Below, in pieces: positions 5,301 through 27,321 of a DNA stretch of 27,321 nt. Below the pieces are notes generated by a model, which worked only from the letters and a program-made list of their open reading frames with translations, made no database searches and had not been told where the DNA came from. Every line of letters starts with the position of its first letter. Positions within the stretch are counted from its first letter, which is position 1. The DNA is from a virus, in UHGV virus genome UHGV-0288412; one strand, 5' to 3'. Both the position numbers and the translations under genes were made by a program.

Positions 5301-6117
5301 GTAGATCCATCTGGCGTACTTGTTTACGTACTTTCAGGAATGAATCAACGTTAATGTTTTCAATTGGTACGGATAAGCCATATTTTTCATTTGTTAGGTA
5401 GTGGAAAATCTGATCCACGCCGTTAGTGCTAGCCTCAATAGCATTGGTTTCAAGGTTACGGATTTTAAGGCCGCAAACGTCTACTGCTACCTGGCTATTT
5501 GGCTGGAGAATATCAACACCAGCAGCAAGAGATTTGTCATCGCGACGCAACACAATACACATGGTTGCAATACCATTGCCTTTGTAGTTGTCGTTCCAGT
5601 CTGACCCTAAATGACGTTTTGCCAGTGACAATGCGGTGTTAGGATTCTTACCAGTGCGGAACTCAACCTCTAAGACTTTCCGGTATTCTTCTTTAATGTT
5701 GCCTTTGTCCAGTACACCATCACGGATCGTCATGTTCTTACCAACAAGAACATTTTTGTTATCGATAAACAGTGCTTTGTAATGGTCGATTTCACCCTCG
5801 GCAATAGCGAAGATTTGCACTAACTTATTGTTTTCTTGCTTGGAAATTGCTTTGTAAACGCAGATTGCACCCGTGCGGGTAGTACCGAAAATAACGGGTA
5901 ATACTGTCTTAGGATCGTTTGATGTTCCTAGTGTCACCGCATTATCTGGGCTTTGTACTTTCGGTGTTTTTGGTGCGCCTACAGTGGAAGCGATCAAAGT
6001 CATTGCACCAGCAGCCATACCGATAGCGACTGCGGTCATAACCGAAAATGTTGCGGCTGCCGCCATCCCAGCCGAAGCACCAGCAATAACCGCGCCTACC
6101 AATACTTCAAATCCCAT
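2341..6117 (-). CDS. Central tail fibre / tail tip protein, lambda gpJ-like (1258 aa)
   Basis: Size and position at the end of the M/L/K tip gene block; the last ~150 aa (GNITADSGTLNNVTINSSC...DRQIVIP...GVIDMPAGKGAVTLTFE...MVTKKATTGITVS) align by eye with my recollection of the lambda J receptor-binding C-terminus; start overlaps the upstream stop (TAATG). Confidence 0.8.
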   Translation of the reverse strand: MGFEVLVGAVIAGASAGMAAAATFSVMTAVAIGMAAGAMTLIASTVGAPKTPKVQSPDNAVTLGTSNDPKTVLPVIFGTTRTGAICVYKAISKQENNKLVQIFAIAEGEIDHYKALFIDNKNVLVGKNMTIRDGVLDKGNIKEEYRKVLEVEFRTGKNPNTALSLAKRHLGSDWNDNYKGNGIATMCIVLRRDDKSLAAGVDILQPNSQVAVDVCGLKIRNLETNAIEASTNGVDQIFHYLTNEKYGLSVPIENINVDSFLKVRKQVRQMDLHSNGACDPNASFKENLTSLMQTFGGVMFESFGRITLKLDAPDIVKHTFNEDNIMMGKVSLKTGGTNGYFNTINAMYQEPSIDYSEQMLRYPADAENDATIRQDGRIIAKDIEYRFVKSKAQIDKLASIERNKSRITQVISFMTTDAFTAEVWDVISVTYDELKLNNSLWRITAIDRSIDSGIAGMMTITATEYNSQVYTDLNYAANPDNRPSGLPDSMTVQKPTNFRIKATGETIYGKNVTLTWDAPEDFNRYGFQIDYRVSGSPNWIKLGQTSQQIFSVNALAKDRSYDYRVCAFGIIARSDWVELINQNPTVTYELPTPVIRIKNQGSTPGTFEGNDLIIEWENQQGLDVEINGETNKFSDLFEAYIIKVTNKAGKSIQYRTRDPESWTYTLDMNQFNGLSRQLTVEVSAKGYNNSESAPARLVAINPQHKPMKGFSARGGFNSVFVSWADDVEHDYAGSIIQYATDNTFSDARAVSTNSVSHTSFDLADGDYYLRAAHYDIFGMDDAVWSEPYFMQMRSTISWDDQDKEALEDLIGLQDRLDETIADAIAQAGANADAKIDAMHKQITTETGQTVQASANTLKSLIATSEQASSTKIDQVKAELKGDITKEVSASATTLKQAIATSEAASASKIDQVRVEMDGKIAGVNQEADVKIDALRGTINSKYNLAVNADGRVAGIHMSATNDPAQPTRIIFNADKIAVAPQNGSEVCPFGIEGNKVYLDNAMIRNAAIGTAQINDAAITTAKIGNAAINSAKIQDGAITNAKIVNGAIDNAKIGNYIQSSNWNGSTGWHINKNGSATFMNATVKGNITADSGTLNNVTINSSCVIKGMLEATQVKGDFVKVIGRKFPHRDVNVDNGYAGYPQGTVTVRVEDDHKFDRQIVIPAVSFGGLRAREGSNNNTYYDTCRLIVRKNGSELYNRAYGGNTGLYSGVIDMPAGKGAVTLTFEVQSSAINNWTPSTWISDLTVMVTKKATTGITVS
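2930..3130 (-). repeat. In-frame octapeptide-type repeats within the J-like gene
   Basis: Encodes NAAIGTAQINDAAITTAKIGNAAINSAKIQDGAITNAKIVNGAIDNAKIG; visible as ~24-bp periodicity in the DNA (aat tgc/acc gcc att ...). Confidence 0.5.
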
Positions 6118-17524: not shown

Positions 17525-19531
17525 TCATTCAGCGGAGATGTGAAGAACTTTCAGAGCTTCCGGCTGAGTAACAACATAATCCAGGTCTACCCAGATACGC
17601 GGAACAATTGCGGACTGTGCACGGTAGGTCGTGTCGTCCATATCCAATTCCAGACCGCCCCACTCACCGATAGTAATACCGGAGAAGTCACCCAGAACGA
17701 TGTGGTCTGCCGGAATAACGCCAGAAGTAACTACATCGTAACCAGCCAGTTTGCCGTTTTCGATGATATAACCGGAAACGCCGTTATCTTTCAGGGTAGA
17801 TTCCAGTTCAGCAGCAGTTGCACCGCTCATCGCAAACTTGATCGCCTGAGCAGGAACGCCAGCGTCAGTCAGTGCTGCAATTTCTTTCAGGAAGTCTTTG
17901 TAAGAGAAAGCGGCTTTCTTAGTAACGCGACCACCGTCTACCAGTTGTTTAACCAGACCAGCCGGACCGCGAGCATTTTCTTTATCAGACAGAATCAGTT
18001 GTTCCAGTTTGATGCGAACAGCTTTGTTAATGTGATCAGTGATCAGGGTAGCGATGCCCGGAACAGTTTTCAGCGACTGACGGCTGATCGGGTTGCCACC
18101 AGCAAAAGTTTTCGGAGACAGTTTCACGTTCGCAAATTCAGCTTTGCTTTCCGGTGCAGCACCGTTTTCATCAACGAAGCCGAAAGCGTCAACGCTGGAA
18201 GCGGTCATTTTTGGAATAGCGGTCGGAGCATTCAAGCCACTGTAAACAGTCACACCGAGGCGGCCTAAAACACTCTGAGGCAACAGCATTTCTACATAGG
18301 ATTCGGTCAGCAGTTTTTCGTCGGTGATAGCAGTCAGATCGGCTTTGGTGTTACCAGCAGCAGCAGCACGCATAGCAGCAGCCGGAACGAATACAGAGCC
18401 ACCGCGAGCAGCACGACCACGCTGCATAGTTGCAGTAGCAGCCATTGCGGAATATTCAGCTTCGTTAGCACCCAGAGCAGCACCATCTACCAGAGAGCGA
18501 ATTACGTTGTTCAGGTCAAAAGTTTTTTCCATGATTTGTTCCTTATTAATTTGTTCGTTATTACGTTGAGCATTGGTAATGTTATTTAGTGCCTTAGTGC
18601 GGAATGCTTCCGGCGTCATGTCTTTAATTGCCAATGCGCGTTTTAATTCTTCGTCGTCAATATTTAGTTCCCGCGCGATCTCGCGGATTTCTAATTCGTC
18701 TTCTTCGGAACGTTCAGCCACTTCCTCGGTTTTTTCTTCTTCAACCGGAACGGCTTCACGTTCTTCTTTTACTTCTTCTGTTTCCCGAACAGTTGAACTA
18801 TCATCATCAACACTTTCAGGATGTTCAGCGTCTTTTCCGTCTTCGAGATTTTCATTTTCTTTATTCTCTTCAACTTGGCGCTCTTGAGTTTCTTCAACTT
18901 CCGATTCTTTATTTTCTTCTACCGGAGTTTCTTCAACCTGAGCGGATTCTTGTTCTTCTTTGATTTCTTCAATTTGTTCTTTAGTCATATCGCGTTTAGC
19001 CTCCAAATTAACTGTGATAGTATTTAGAGAGCGATTTAAACCGACCGTATCGTCTGCGGGAACGGTGACAAATGAGAGTTCATAGGGTGCCCACTTAGTA
19101 ACAATCAATTGCCCTTTGGCGTAATCGATGTGATATTCTTTAATGTCATAGCCGACAGAAATTTTTTCCATCGTACCTTCAATGACTTTATTACGAATAT
19201 CATTAGCCATAGTCCCATGCTTGGAGAACTTAACCAGAGCACGACCTACGTTATCCGCATCGATTCGAGCGTTACAAACGACACCAATGTGATTATCGAA
19301 ATTGTGATTGAACAGCAACGGAGCGTTATTATTCAGACGAGACAGATCAACCGCTTCCGGTGTATGTACCAGAATTTCATCTAATACCACCATTTCTTGA
19401 TTTTGCTCATCCCAGAATTGGCGCTGATAAGGCTGTTCACTGGAGAAAGCAATTTCAAATTCGTATTGATCGTTATGCCCTTCGTTAATAACTCCACCGT
19501 AACCGTTAAGATCGCGGCGAAATTTAAGCAT
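17525..19531 (-). CDS. Fused prohead protease (HK97/S78-type) - scaffold-like acidic linker - major capsid protein (668 aa), ending at UGA
   Basis: N-terminus PLLFNHNFDNHIGVV...GRALVKF...ISVGYDIKEY fits the S78 prohead protease pattern (catalytic His and Ser); central Glu-rich coiled-coil (EEIKEEQESAQVEETPVEENKESEVEE...); C-terminal ~370 aa capsid-like; follows the portal gene; AGGTGA Shine-Dalgarno. Confidence 0.8.
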   Translation of the reverse strand: MLKFRRDLNGYGGVINEGHNDQYEFEIAFSSEQPYQRQFWDEQNQEMVVLDEILVHTPEAVDLSRLNNNAPLLFNHNFDNHIGVVCNARIDADNVGRALVKFSKHGTMANDIRNKVIEGTMEKISVGYDIKEYHIDYAKGQLIVTKWAPYELSFVTVPADDTVGLNRSLNTITVNLEAKRDMTKEQIEEIKEEQESAQVEETPVEENKESEVEETQERQVEENKENENLEDGKDAEHPESVDDDSSTVRETEEVKEEREAVPVEEEKTEEVAERSEEDELEIREIARELNIDDEELKRALAIKDMTPEAFRTKALNNITNAQRNNEQINKEQIMEKTFDLNNVIRSLVDGAALGANEAEYSAMAATATMQRGRAARGGSVFVPAAAMRAAAAGNTKADLTAITDEKLLTESYVEMLLPQSVLGRLGVTVYSGLNAPTAIPKMTASSVDAFGFVDENGAAPESKAEFANVKLSPKTFAGGNPISRQSLKTVPGIATLITDHINKAVRIKLEQLILSDKENARGPAGLVKQLVDGGRVTKKAAFSYKDFLKEIAALTDAGVPAQAIKFAMSGATAAELESTLKDNGVSGYIIENGKLAGYDVVTSGVIPADHIVLGDFSGITIGEWGGLELDMDDTTYRAQSAIVPRIWVDLDYVVTQPEALKVLHISAE

Positions 19532-21668: not shown

Positions 21669-23573
21669 TTAGAACGATGTTATCCAGCTACGGCCTCTAT
21701 TTGGACGTCTGACGATGTTTTGACGTTGTGGTCGTGTGATTGGCTTATTTTCTTCGATTTGCTCGTCAGATTGCGATTTAGGAGCTTCTACGGGTTCTTC
21801 TGGTTCACGGTTCAAACTATCTTTGATGGCTTCGAGTTTTTCCCATGACATTTTATTGAGTACATGGCGAGAAGCAGCATAGGAATAAGCCAGGCAGTCG
21901 AGAGCCTCGTTTCGTTGCTGACCAACTTTTACCCAACGTGTGGTATTACCCTGCCGTTTCAACTGTTCAGAAAGCAATTGCTCGCAATAGTCATCAGGAA
22001 CGTCACCAATCTGGAAGACAGTGTGAGGATCGCCATCTCTCAAGTTCCGGTTAATCATTTCACGGATCATCGTTTTAAGGTTGTTTACGCCCAGAATTTT
22101 AAGGGTAAAACCACCCGTTCTTGTGTCTTTTACCGGAAGGATTGGTGCATCAACATTGCTTGCGCCTTTAATGGCGCATAGATTTTGCCACCTAGTGCAA
22201 AAGCGGTAGATCACTTGCGTAGCTCGTCCGTTTGATGAGTCCACGAAAGCGGATAGCATCGGGATTCGTTGACCGGATCGGGTATAGAATTTTGCTTTCA
22301 GGAAGTTGTAAAGCTGGTCATATGCTGGTGATTCGTGGCGTTCGCAGTTCACATCATAGAATGATCGGTGATCAACTACGCATAGACCTTTACGAGAAAT
22401 ACCCAGCAAGGTAGATTCCAGACGGTCTTTTTGCTGGTCAACTCCACCTACCAGAGCCAGTACATCATCAGGAATATTGTCTAGGCTAATATCAGTTTTC
22501 AGCGTTTCCAGTTCGTCGGCTGTGCGGTCTTCGTTAAGATCATCGAAGGTTTCACCGAGGACTGTATTGTAGAACGTTGCCAGGGACATATTCGCGTAGC
22601 TATCAGCAAAGTCCACCACACACGCACGGATAGAACTAAACGGAGACATAAGGCGGTTAGCATGAAAACCGATTACTTCCGCATTTGGTTCGGTGGCGAC
22701 CCATTCTCCCTTAGCAACAGCACGTAGGCGATCCCCTTCGGTCCAGTCGGTTTCACATTCAGGACAACGATAAACGGCTGTATCTGGGTTGGGTAATGAT
22801 TTACCGTTAATCGTATGCCAATCGAAATGTACGTTACTCCATTCCATTACGTGCTTGTGTCCGCAATGCTGGCAAACGACATGATATTTTCTCTTATCCG
22901 AGAGTTCCCATTGTTGGTTAATCGCCCCATCACGAGCGGTTGGAGTGGAAGCAATTACGATCCTTGCATCTTCCCCGAAAGTGGTTGCGCGTTGTTCCGC
23001 TAGCTGGATCGGGTTCCCTTCGTCTGACTCATCAGCCGCATCAACTTCATCAAGAATAATCAAAGGGAGTGTTTTACCGCGAAGATGTGACGGACTATTC
23101 AACGACATGAAATACATAAACGATCCGTTACGAAGCTGAATAATCGATGAGTTGTTAACGGCATTGCGATCTGATTTGTCGGTGATCATCGCCTTTAATT
23201 CTGGCGTTGCCTCTAATACTGGCTTCACCTTACCAGCGATCCAAGAATTTAGTTCCCTAACGTTACTTTGCAACACCCCGATATTAGTAGGGTTACTCGC
23301 GATCCGATGGAAGATAATTCCGTTAAGAATCATGGTCTTACCCAACTGTGCCGAACATTTAAACACAATTTTTCTACGGTCTTCGGTGATCGCGTCCATC
23401 ATTCCACGTTGGAAGGGATGCAATTTAATTAGCGATCCGGCTTTAACACCATCGGTAGCAACTACATTAGCCTCTACCCATTCGCTAGGTTTCATGGCTT
23501 TAGGTGGACGAATTGCAGCAGAGATATTTTTAAGAATCTTTTTTAATTTGGCCTTGTTCGAAATCAGTTTCAT
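21669..23573 (-). CDS. Terminase large subunit, lambda gpA-like (634 aa)
   Basis: Walker A-like SAQLGKTM and Walker B-like LIILDEVD in the N-terminal ATPase; CQHCGH...CPEC zinc-ribbon-like motif; acidic nuclease-like C-terminal half; first gene of the structural operon. Confidence 0.8.
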   Translation of the reverse strand: MKLISNKAKLKKILKNISAAIRPPKAMKPSEWVEANVVATDGVKAGSLIKLHPFQRGMMDAITEDRRKIVFKCSAQLGKTMILNGIIFHRIASNPTNIGVLQSNVRELNSWIAGKVKPVLEATPELKAMITDKSDRNAVNNSSIIQLRNGSFMYFMSLNSPSHLRGKTLPLIILDEVDAADESDEGNPIQLAEQRATTFGEDARIVIASTPTARDGAINQQWELSDKRKYHVVCQHCGHKHVMEWSNVHFDWHTINGKSLPNPDTAVYRCPECETDWTEGDRLRAVAKGEWVATEPNAEVIGFHANRLMSPFSSIRACVVDFADSYANMSLATFYNTVLGETFDDLNEDRTADELETLKTDISLDNIPDDVLALVGGVDQQKDRLESTLLGISRKGLCVVDHRSFYDVNCERHESPAYDQLYNFLKAKFYTRSGQRIPMLSAFVDSSNGRATQVIYRFCTRWQNLCAIKGASNVDAPILPVKDTRTGGFTLKILGVNNLKTMIREMINRNLRDGDPHTVFQIGDVPDDYCEQLLSEQLKRQGNTTRWVKVGQQRNEALDCLAYSYAASRHVLNKMSWEKLEAIKDSLNREPEEPVEAPKSQSDEQIEENKPITRPQRQNIVRRPNRGRSWITSF

Positions 23574-23658: not shown

Positions 23659-24264
23659 ATGCTAATTAATCAGCAAGAAAGAGATGAAGTAGAATTAGCC
23701 TTGTCTTGTTGTACCGATCATGAATATCGTTTGCCAGTTAAGCATAAGCATTTAAAAACCGACTACACTACATCTGGCTTTAGTCGTGAGGAAGCGAAAG
23801 AGATTTTAATAGAATTTTACCGCGATAATGGGTATACAGATATCCATAACTTCTTTAAGAAGCATAGAACATCACATACAGAGTTCCAGAGAGTCCGAGA
23901 TTGGTTTGATTTTGATATCAAGCGTTATTATCGAGTGGATGACGGTCCTATCTATCGGTTGCAGTGGAAGCCGATCCGAGAAGTGTTGAAACAGAAGAGA
24001 TTGAATCACGCAATTACACGCTATCGCAACGAGGCTTTCAAGAAAGGCTATGGTGATACAAGGGAACTATTCGTTGAACTCGCTAACGTGCGTTATAGCC
24101 ACTATTACAACGATCCTAAAGGGTTCTTTGAAGTGCTTCGCAAGGTTGATATAAGTCGGGGTACATACTATTCACGGTTGAAGAAGTACGGGATTAAGGC
24201 AGAGTTCTTTATGAGTATTGACGATGGAGAACTTTTTCCGATAAAATGTAAGTCCTCTAAATAA
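23659..24264 (+). CDS. Hypothetical protein (201 aa), divergent from the terminase gene
   Basis: Plus-strand ORF with GGGGG Shine-Dalgarno; rich in Tyr/Arg/Lys; no motif recognised. Confidence 0.45.
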   Translation: MLINQQERDEVELALSCCTDHEYRLPVKHKHLKTDYTTSGFSREEAKEILIEFYRDNGYTDIHNFFKKHRTSHTEFQRVRDWFDFDIKRYYRVDDGPIYRLQWKPIREVLKQKRLNHAITRYRNEAFKKGYGDTRELFVELANVRYSHYYNDPKGFFEVLRKVDISRGTYYSRLKKYGIKAEFFMSIDDGELFPIKCKSSK

Positions 24265-25546: not shown

Positions 25547-25650
25547 AGTAAGATTCCCCTTAATTAACGGTTTTGCGATTTAATCCTCCTGTTTTTAACT
25601 GTCCACACGCCAACGGCGCGCGGAACAATTTTATTTATAATAGAAATTTA

Positions 25651-26103: not shown

Positions 26104-26556
26104 TTACAGCATATCTAAGCCTTCATCGTAACCGTAGAAGCCATTCTGAGAAGAGAAACAGATTGGCGCGTAGTCGTCGTCATCTTCGTCTTGTTCATCG
26201 TGTTCTGGGGCTTCCTGAGCGGGTTGTTTACCATAATCAGCCATAATCTGGTCAAGATCGGCGATCCCATAGTAAGAGCCTAAATCAACGTCATATTCAC
26301 GAACATCAAACGGCAGGTCATCACGAACAATAATTGCCGGAATGTTGTTGTATTGTTCACGACCTTCATCAGTAAAGCAGTCTACGATCACCGTAGGGCG
26401 TCCATTACGTTTAAAAGCATAGAAAGCAGTTGAGAAATTGGAGTCTTCGGAATGACGAATGATGTTATAACCACGATTAGCGAAAACATGCATCATATCC
26501 AGATTATCATCATGGTTCAGACCCAGAAGAATGAAAGGAGTTTTAGTATTGATCAT
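26104..26556 (-). CDS. Hypothetical protein with strongly acidic C-terminal segment (150 aa)
   Basis: ...QEAPEHDEQDEDDDDYAPICF...; first gene downstream of the large non-coding region on the minus strand. Confidence 0.45.
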   Translation of the reverse strand: MINTKTPFILLGLNHDDNLDMMHVFANRGYNIIRHSEDSNFSTAFYAFKRNGRPTVIVDCFTDEGREQYNNIPAIIVRDDLPFDVREYDVDLGSYYGIADLDQIMADYGKQPAQEAPEHDEQDEDDDDYAPICFSSQNGFYGYDEGLDML

Positions 26557-27235
26557 AGTGGAAATCCTCTAAAAGAAAGTGAATCAAACAAAGTACACTA
26601 TTATTTATAACGAGAAATTTTTGTCTAATTTGAAAGGAATTGGTATTCAGTCGGCTTCGCCTCCTTCATAGATTTTGATTAAATCATCATCAAAACGAAG
26701 AAGTATCTTTAGAATATAAGAATCTTTCTTTTGGAGAAATTATAATCAGGAAGCAATTTAGCAACCGAAGGTTGCAATCCCGAAGGGATACCAATACCTT
26801 TCATGATCATTAAAGTGATCTAGAATCATCTAGTAACCAGTTAACTACTATTATCTTCAAAGTGATTATTACTATCTTTCTAGAATCAGTTAGTAACTAG
26901 TTTAAAATCCCTTTCGAGAAAATCCTTTCAGAAGTGATTCTCGATGCCACGCAGTGGCGTCGCAGACGTTTGAGAGTGAGCGAAGCGAGCGAGCAAACTA
27001 GTTAATTCCTTCTAAGACCATCTAGTATCATCTAGTTTAAATTAGTGTTACTAGAAGTAATTGGTTAGCGCTTCGCGCAGTCGGGCTACGCCCTCCTAAT
27101 ATCTTTTTGGTTATTTGTTGTTTTTGGTTTTACACATGAGCGTAGCGAATGTGTTATATAATATCTATGCACGCCCGATCCCCCGCTTTTGCCCCTCGCT
27201 AAGTTAATGTTTTATAAAGAGTTTTTCTCACCAAT
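26557..27235. promoter_or_regulatory. About 680 bp non-coding, repeat-rich control region (candidate origin, pac or early-promoter region)
   Basis: No ORF of 60 aa or more on either strand; repeated TCTAGAATCA...TAGTAAC(C/T)AGTT units (26819-26842, 26879-26902), CATCTAGT repeats (27019-27039), AACTAGTT palindromes, and hairpins GCAACC-gaa-GGTTGC (26761-26775) and GCCAC-gca-GTGGC (26946-26958). Confidence 0.5.
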
Positions 27236-27240
27236 CCTTT

Positions 27241-27321
27241 TCGGGGGCAAATTTCAGGGGCAAAAATTAGATTTTCAGGGGCAATTATTGGCATTTCAGG
27301 GGCAAAAATGAGGGGCAAAAT
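27241..27321 (+). repeat. Five clustered direct repeats of (T)CAGGGGCAAAA(AT), running to the window edge
   Basis: GGGGC cores at 27244, 27257, 27278, 27299 and 27312 (spacings 13, 21, 21, 13); inverted copy TTTTGCCCCT at 27189-27198; same motif forms the hairpin at 24668-24686. Confidence 0.7.

Follow-up and report, generated by a model that had tools for sequence, protein, structure and literature searches.

The DNA at positions 26557-27235 of a viral stretch of 27,321 nucleotides (nt), which as a whole is termed the window, is well supported as part of a divergent early control region, of which it makes up the left half; the region is 1.2-1.46 kb long, free of genes, and belongs to a ~36-kb temperate Escherichia coli prophage. 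Further to the right, this region holds an array of short direct repeats beginning at 27239, and the motif of the array corresponds one-to-one to the type of a 313-343-amino-acid (aa) protein (p313) encoded ~0.9 kb to the right. It is proposed that the region combines early control with an iteron-type origin of replication bound by p313, a tentative reading that is granted somewhat less than an even chance; a function of the repeats as operators of an immunity or autoregulatory protein is its main rival. The anatomy of the region, its conservation, and the pairing of array and p313 types were observed directly in the genomes, and on this basis we infer that p313 may bind the array and that the region may serve as an origin.

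The window matches a metagenome contig of the ENA (27,323 nt) almost end to end, and identical DNA is found in E. coli chromosomes. The contig break at 27321 falls within the repeat array, and this end is most likely an assembly break at the repeats, not the end of the genome. Positions beyond 27321 are given as virtual window coordinates taken from one chromosomal locus, L001 (virtual position = 36557 minus the L001 position), which shows no mismatch to the window across the 1218-nt overlap. The original prediction had regarded 26557-27235 as non-coding and as the largest gene-free stretch of the window, and it was right on both counts: no open reading frame (ORF) of at least 40 aa lies wholly inside, and no credible ORF was detected. 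The right boundary at 27235 is artificial, as gene-free DNA continues to 27321 and then for 622 nt more, up to the start of a 60-aa gene (p60). The complete gene-free region comprises 1387 nt in genomes that agree fully with the window across the 1218 nt they share, and the same gap in 13 annotated E. coli relatives spans 1200-1464 nt without any annotated feature. It is carried by 58 of 5426 complete E. coli genomes (~1%), in nearly all of which the NCBI annotation pipeline places no feature under the match. A hidden protein gene, e.g. one restored by correcting a frameshift, was considered and rejected: no ORF is conserved, relatives differ by replacements of whole segments and by insertions and deletions that are not multiples of three, and the sole ATG of one candidate lies inside an optional duplication. 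A tRNA search of the region was negative, and 50,697 phage records searched by megablast contained no match to the region.

The array consists of nine direct copies of TTCAGGGGCAAAA, of which the window contains five, and is accompanied by one inverted copy; the rest of the prophage is essentially free of the motif. Spacings are mostly 11, 13, 21-23, and 41-44 bp, with a best-fitting period of 10.7-11.3 bp (R 0.79-0.94). Across the family, arrays harbor 6-18 direct repeats in one cluster, with a single orientation in types A, B, and C. Relatives show other motifs at the same place, namely TAGTGTAGGTTT (type B), GGAATCTTGGGGATTT (type C), CTTGTACATC with CTAATACCGGGGA (type D), and ACGGGGA, repeated ~18 times (type E). 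Five array types and one intermediate were distinguished across 37 loci. The array and the untranslated DNA to its right are composed as follows:

27187-27197, minus strand: array motif in inverted orientation (GAGGGGCAAAA as read on the minus strand), a single copy lying 45 nt to the left of the repeats.
27239-27321, plus strand: first five copies of the direct-repeat array, with cores at 27244, 27257, 27278, 27299, and 27312; the four further copies are present in complete genomes.
Virtual 27385 and 27432-27490: additional motifs of the composite array in type A, seen in the sequence.
Virtual 27530-27913 (L001 8644-9027, minus strand): untranslated leader of 384 nt, fold z = -4.5.

When the motif was compared with the neighboring proteins, at first in 13 and then in 36 loci, p313 matched it one-to-one. 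Type A (AGGGGCAA) accounts for 20 of these 36 loci and type B (AGTGTAGG) for 12, with one locus each for type C (TGGAATCT) and type D (TGTACATC) and 1-2 for type E (ACGGGGA). Sequence identity of p313 amounts to 91-99% within types A and B and to 23-29% between types. In the 37th locus, p313 is 50% identical to type A and the array keeps the same core (GAGGGGCAAAAAT), so that the co-variation is graded. Other parts of the locus do not track the array type. This holds for the leader variants R1 and R2 and for p60, which lies between array and p313, occurs in at least four variants, and is 96% identical between one type-A and one type-B locus. A 150-aa, a Rha-like, and a 75-aa protein likewise assort independently. 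The Nu1-like small terminase of the prophage, N-terminal DNA-binding part included, is 96% identical between a type-A and a type-B locus and was rejected as array partner for this reason. Mismatched array/p313 pairs were not seen, though single crossovers in the conserved middle segment would create them; this is read as selection for a matched pair, i.e. as a sign that p313 specifically recognizes its array. The types also meet in one genome: E. coli UTME-9 (NZ_CP157110.1, 2806354 and 3413984) carries two prophages of the family with array/p313 types A and B. In another strain, BS74R-D, two places match type-A p313.

The DNA between the array and the p313 gene, about 550-650 nt in length, contains promoter, leader, and the small gene p60. 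A perfect sigma-70 promoter (TTGACA-17-TGnTATAAT, virtual 27495-27523) lies immediately right of the array and points rightward, with the last motifs of the array overlapping its upstream edge; a second promoter (10/12) is also located immediately right of the array. The most A+T-rich 40-mer of the region (85% A+T, virtual 27506-27545) overlaps the rightward promoter, and no 13-mer-type repeats were seen there. The leader ends with a hairpin and a T-run ~35 nt before p60, both kept in all aligned variants. R1 and R2 are unrelated in sequence, each of them keeping a TATAAATA, the 8-mer of T4 late promoters, and the terminator; R1 additionally shows five (T/A)AACA(C/T) repeats. Downstream follow, in rightward order, the helix-turn-helix-like p60 and p313.

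The N-terminal 170 aa of p313 are basic in types A, B, and C (isoelectric point 9.5-9.8), and the remainder is mostly acidic (about 4.2), apart from a basic central segment in type C. A long coiled coil is predicted for residues 181-236. Neither sequence nor fold revealed similarity to Rep_3 or other winged-helix initiators (RepA/RepE/pi). A search among 5.8 billion proteins was empty or uninformative, structure prediction gave a weak model, and searching for related folds was likewise uninformative. Partial p313 matches in four genomes were rejected as natural domain chimeras, since the three inspected are truncations by insertion sequences (IS3/IS5).

On these grounds, the following course of events is conceivable. 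The basic N-terminal domain of p313 would bind the array of its own type, and the coiled coil would multimerize the protein along the repeats. The resulting complex would open the adjacent A+T-rich promoter DNA, so that phage replication could start with host enzymes, assisted by transcription from the strong neighboring promoter, as at lambda ori. The same complex might feed back on the rightward promoter. The iteron-type origin is favored because the array has many direct repeats at multiples of ~11/22 bp, because a strong promoter, A+T-rich DNA, and stable hairpins on both strands adjoin them, and because no other candidate initiator or origin was found in the phage. One divergent family member, L131, adds to this with three perfect DnaA boxes (TTATCCACA; 3192, 3212, 3351) beside p313, on an insertion between the 60-aa and p313 genes; no other family locus has DnaA boxes. 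The original prediction had also named an origin, which is plausible, but for the wrong repeats: the array that behaves like iterons begins at 27239, outside the range it had flagged.

Several observations weigh against an origin bound by p313. A helical-phasing test of the array at exactly 10.5 bp was not significant (p = 0.03-0.65). DnaA boxes (TTATCCACA, <=1 mismatch) and the consensus of integration host factor (WATCAANNNNTTR) are absent from the 1387-nt region of the window type. The mapping of motif to protein is not clean, as type-A loci also hold one C-like and 2-3 B-type motifs adjoining the promoter; a type-B locus, L016, carries a C-type motif at about 3308. The 37 loci are related and do not represent 37 independent events, and only one or two loci stand behind each of types C, D, and E. 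p313 is unlike any known initiator or DNA-binding fold, without a match in Pfam, PHROG, or PDB profiles; tblastn against plasmids and sequenced phages detected no relative, and only ~4 full-length clusters exist among 1.8 billion representative proteins. Finally, co-variation of array and p313 is equally typical of repressor-operator pairs. A scan of the region for GATC clusters was negative.

According to the main rival, p313 is the repressor of the prophage or an autoregulator, the repeats are operators upstream of the strongest early promoter, the types are heteroimmunity types, and replication starts elsewhere. Phage immunity regions are classically marked by co-variation of a protein with its sites amid shuffled flanks, the array adjoins and with its last motifs overlaps the consensus promoter that drives p313 itself, and the co-residence of type-A and type-B prophages in UTME-9 is expected for heteroimmune phages. 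The repressor of phage Mu occupies about nine sites over 200 bp, and p313, with its basic N-terminal domain and coiled coil, recalls this protein. Nevertheless, six to eighteen repeats in the same orientation are unusual for operators, p313 has no helix-turn-helix, and its gene lies behind a 384-nt leader and a terminator. The helix-turn-helix-like proteins of 201, 110, and 60 aa are better repressor candidates, and the two places matching type-A p313 in BS74R-D may speak against this reading. An operator function in place of an origin is considered somewhat less likely than the origin itself. Judged by its sequence, the array is of the iteron/operator type with a probably cognate, yet unprecedented protein, in an E. 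coli prophage family that is uncharacterized.

The control function itself is better founded than the origin. The region lies between two diverging transcription units with promoter-like sites both ways, which upholds the control-region part of the original prediction, and conserved candidate binding sites, small helix-turn-helix-like proteins encoded nearby, and the leader with its terminator point in the same direction. From left to right, the flagged stretch and the gene bordering it contain the following elements (hairpins are listed without a strand):

26104-26556, minus strand: 150-aa gene, the first of a leftward operon (150-aa, 110-aa, Rha/Ant-like 283-aa); acidic C-terminus, no family match.
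26557-26599, minus strand: 5' untranslated leader and Shine-Dalgarno sequence AGAGGA of the 150-aa gene, 76-95% conserved in 13 loci.
26600-26627, minus strand: leftward promoter-like site TAGACA-16-AATAAT, including the invariant 8-mer TATAAATA at 26602-26609.
26653-26661: mini-hairpin a, GGC-TTC-GCC; in relatives the loop differs and the stem is retained, with one compensatory variant (GGGC/GCCC, TGGC/GCCA).
26665-26749, plus strand: K-box cassette of 85 nt, with the palindrome TTTTGAT-N9-ATCAAAA at 26673-26695, a conserved AACGAAGAAGTATCTTTAGAA, and TATAAT at 26741-26746.
26761-26789: two adjoining perfect hairpins, GCAACC-GAA-GGTTGC (26761-26775) and ATCCC-GAA-GGGAT (26777-26789).
26797-26916, plus strand: partial tandem duplication of ~60 bp with CTAG boxes at 26819-26842 and 26879-26902; conservation in 13 of 13 aligned loci is limited to the second copy.
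26904-26928, plus strand: two copies of the direct repeat AAAATCC(C)TTTC, in a block conserved to 90-93%.
26942-26962: hairpin d, CGATGCCAC-GCA-GTGGCGTCG; GATGTCCC-GTA-GGGACGTC in L131 (two compensatory pairs) and CGCC-GTA-GGCG in type-B loci.
26980-26986: mini-hairpin motif GCGAAGC, conserved in types A and B.
26995-27055, plus strand: second cluster of CTAG boxes (AACTAGTT, CATCTAGT twice, TACTAGAAG).
27068-27093: hairpins f (GCGC-TTC-GCGC, 27068-27078) and g (GGGC-TAC-GCCC, 27083-27093).
27098-27132, plus strand: T-rich, A+T-rich tract of type-A loci only.
27133-27153: hairpin h, CACAT-N11-ATGTG around GCGTAGC, seen in the sequence.

In the alignment of 13 loci on which the conservation figures are based, 26557-26796 is conserved to 72-95%, followed by an optional insertion (26797-26856) that corresponds to the first of the two repeat units of the original prediction, by a block conserved to 82-94% (26857-26936), and by mosaic sequence. 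The leftward promoter-like site, 44 nt upstream of the 150-aa gene, keeps its -10 region in all 13 aligned loci. All motifs and palindromes of the original prediction are present where it had placed them, among them its two 24-nt units 60 bp apart, TCTAGAATCATCTAGTAACCAGTT (26819-26842) and TCTAGAATCAGTTAGTAACTAGTT (26879-26902), two matches compared with 0.00 expected (100 shuffles). Its label "iteron-like" does not extend to a series of iterons across the family: the units stem from a lineage-specific doubling of the conserved CTAG box, the first unit being part of a partial 60-bp tandem duplication seen in 14 of 37 scored loci and put at about 45% of related loci. CATCTAGT occurs three times (26827, 27019, 27029), always within the region (0.65 expected), and AACTAGTT at 26895 and 26996; the density of CTAG reaches 34 per kb in 26820-27051 compared with 1.5 per kb in the remaining window (23-fold). 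The second CTAG box, CTAGAATCAGTTAGTAACTAGT, is conserved in 13 of 13 aligned loci and is probably a protein-binding site. It is supposed that CTAG boxes and small helix-turn-helix proteins would together set the divergent early promoters.

Hairpins are more frequent than the two noted originally: seven perfect ones (stem >=4 bp, >=3 G:C, loop 3-4) lie in 26557-27240, where 0.54 are expected and none of 1000 dinucleotide shuffles reached seven, at a density 8-fold that of the remaining window. Their stems persist while the loops change, and several show compensatory changes (a, GGGC/GCCC vs TGGC/GCCA; d, GCCAC/GTGGC vs GTCCC/GGGAC; g, GGGC/GCCC vs GGCC/GGCC). In f and g the stems are constant and the loops vary (TTC, TAC, TAAA), with the compensatory form GGCC-TAC-GGCC in L131. 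The module CAGTCGG(G)C-loop-GCC(C)TCCT around hairpin a is found again at 27079-27096. The counterpart of 26761-26789 in some relatives and in Krischvirus, the RB49-like T4 phages, differs in sequence and again forms two adjacent hairpins. Most GC-rich hairpins carry a C-GNA-G triloop on one strand or the other, and DNA mini-hairpins with this loop, such as d(GCGAAGC), are unusually stable.

Such conserved stems could also belong to RNA. The flagged stretch or the leader might mainly yield structured regulatory RNAs, similar to the RNA-based immunity of P4, P1, and N15, in which a strong promoter and a processed leader RNA with a terminator precede the regulated genes. Consistent with this, the 384-nt leader folds at z = -4.5 relative to shuffles and is followed by the terminator before p60 in both variants, the mini-hairpin stems persist through compensatory changes, and ATCAAAA of the K-box can pair with either an upstream or a downstream TTTTGA/G in mutually exclusive ways, with compensatory variants in L016, L017, L021, and the Krischvirus JSE. 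Against it, no Rfam 15 covariance model matched the window at its gathering score and nothing credible appeared in the full region even at E <= 1, RNAalifold found no consensus structure in the alignment of 15 K-box copies, and 100-nt windows of the flagged range are mostly unremarkable (z < -2.5 in 2 of 24). Furthermore, no promoter-like site meeting the scan criteria lies between 26627 and 27467, the loops fit the stable C-GNA-G type of DNA on alternating strands and not RNA tetraloops, and the pairing of array and p313 would be left unexplained. A locus devoted mainly to non-coding RNA is quite unlikely.

Unannotated intergenic spots in 59 phage records, exclusively of Krischvirus, share 75-82% identity with the K-box, at 1-3 places per genome. 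An exact-pattern scan of IMG/VR for its core returned 101 stretches, of which only two groups are similar beyond the core pattern, ~25 contigs from this prophage family and six copies in Krischvirus. In addition to the palindrome, which has the compensatory form TTGGTT-N7-AACCAA in JSE, the K-box holds a conserved AACGAAGAA..ATCTTTAGAA. Both in the prophage family and in all full-length Krischvirus copies that were examined, two adjacent hairpins of differing sequence come next. The best promoter reading by eye is 3/6 plus TAGAAT, and the promoter scan found nothing there. RB49 and phi1 are known for PeSL cassettes (early promoter plus stem-loop), ~50 per genome (PMC2839356; PeSL are also defined in PMC4122927). 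The K-box with its two hairpins is likewise a short intergenic module of regulatory appearance in the same phage genus, always followed by stem-loops, and, like the early promoters of RB49, the promoter pointing rightward in the prophage conforms perfectly to TTGACA-N17-TATAAT. The K-box itself, however, has no TTGACA-N17-TATAAT, its conserved core sitting at the position of the promoter spacer; it occurs 1-3 times per genome instead of ~50, and its hairpins are not of the G(n)-loop-C(n) type. An assignment as PeSL was rejected on account of the missing promoter and the rarity per genome. The K-box is treated as a regulatory module probably gained by horizontal exchange, which is supported by the UvsW-type helicase of the prophage, a protein that matches Pfam UvsW_N at 1e-34, is 80-83% identical to Krischvirus UvsW over all 496 aa, and by its sequence appears to have come from the RB49-like T4 group. 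Together, K-box and uvsW document that a temperate phage and virulent T4-like ones have recently exchanged regulatory DNA. The gene and the T4 late-promoter 8-mers are located as follows:

1-300 of the window, plus strand: uvsW gene (Pfam UvsW_N), continuing left of the window (L009 6724-8214).
26602-26609 and 25632-25639 of the window, minus strand; L008 21715, 21773, and 23729; L009 12214: copies of TATAAATA, seen in the sequence.

Seven copies of TATAAATA are present in the 36-kb prophage. Six of them lie 40-110 nt upstream of a non-structural gene and point in its direction (150-aa, Rha-like, 60-aa twice, 94-aa, 81-aa), and the sites share the context cgtTATAAATA with poor -35 elements; the 20-kb structural operon has none. 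The placement of these sites, the confinement of the K-box to Krischvirus outside this family, and the identity of UvsW suggest that the control region may sense or exploit infection by RB49-like T4 phages, to which only a slim chance is given. The late transcription machinery of a superinfecting RB49-like phage, whose DNA contains unmodified cytosine, would then switch on the early genes and the origin of the prophage. The outcome could be escape, piracy, or defense, e.g. by untimely UvsW unwinding the R-loop origins of the invader.

The prophage is inserted in ycdX or, in some strains, in hicB. It encodes a large serine recombinase and, on the minus strand, a lambda-type gpA large terminase, a lambda-family portal, a protease-capsid fusion, and tail genes; for its capsid protein, the closest relative reaches 44% identity. 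A single product of 668 aa (window 17525-19531, minus strand) unites the major capsid protein with an S78 prohead protease domain. Initiator, polymerase, and primase are not recognizable in the prophage, the UvsW-type helicase being the sole replication-related gene. Among the helix-turn-helix-like small proteins nearby (110 aa and 60 aa), p60 has a larger counterpart of 201 aa, an apparent tandem of two p60-like units (..FHKLLKKYDIKVK vs ..YSRLKKYGIKAEF):

23659-24264 of the window, plus strand: 201-aa gene, transcribed against the late genes; candidate repressor.

The terminase genes bear on a further explanation, in which the Nu1-like small terminase would bind the repeats as cosB-like sites and cos would lie within the region. 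The phage has both lambda-type terminase subunits, and lambda cosB likewise consists of repeated protein-binding sites. But the small terminase does not co-vary with the array, as its 96% identity between types A and B demonstrates, and its gene, adjacent to the attachment site at the distal end of the prophage (L001 6157-6711), is ~3 kb away and has a gene-free upstream stretch of its own (360 nt) whose GC-rich segment is a better candidate for cos. A packaging site at the array is very improbable. The GC-rich segment (L001 about 5990-6040) may be cos. Between the small terminase gene and the gene for the gpA large terminase (window 21669-23573) lie ~6 kb with two opposing transcription units.

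The prophage family is found in ~1% of complete E. coli genomes, with a control region that is essentially unannotated everywhere, no megablast-level match in sequenced phages, and no publication found in a literature search. An array in five or six types together with an orphan protein family that shows no recognizable DNA-binding fold makes up a specificity pair that can be tested. Should p313 be an initiator, it would represent a new initiator family with naturally orthogonal origin-initiator pairs; should it be a repressor, it would stand for a new immunity system.

Among known systems, iteron origins (P1 oriR/RepA, F ori2/RepE, R6K, pSC101, lambda ori/O, and ori/Rep of Staphylococcus aureus pathogenicity islands, SaPIs) phage immunity regions, and the IncQ and T4 origins can be compared with the region. 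With iteron origins the prophage shares short repeats in the same orientation and in multiples of ~11/22 bp, an array next to an A+T-rich stretch and a promoter, near the gene of a type-matched protein and with one inverted copy nearby, and specificity types of origin and initiator among mosaic relatives, as in lambdoid phages and SaPIs. It differs in that p313 has neither the winged-helix Rep fold nor homology to any initiator, the repeats are cores of 13-15 nt in irregular singlets and doublets, DnaA boxes are confined to one lineage, and about 550-650 nt lie between array and p313 gene. Phage immunity regions (imm of lambda, 434, and P22; the Mu c repressor with O1-O3) resemble it in a specificity pair of protein and sites amid exchangeable conserved segments, in sites at the main early promoter, and in the co-residence of different types in one genome. 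Here, however, the sites are direct and not dyad-symmetric, far more numerous, and located upstream of the promoter rather than over it, and p313 is an orphan without helix-turn-helix. In the oriV of IncQ plasmids (RSF1010), iterons likewise occur together with an A+T-rich segment and with stable hairpins on opposite strands, which in IncQ are single-strand initiation sites; in contrast, no plasmid-type primase or helicase gene is recognizable in the prophage. In T4, UvsW, a helicase that the prophage encodes as well, regulates the R-loop origins oriF and oriG, in which a promoter is followed by an unwinding element. For the prophage region, priming of DNA synthesis at the hairpins, as in IncQ oriV, and an R-loop formed by the leader RNA, as at oriF/oriG, are hypothetical.

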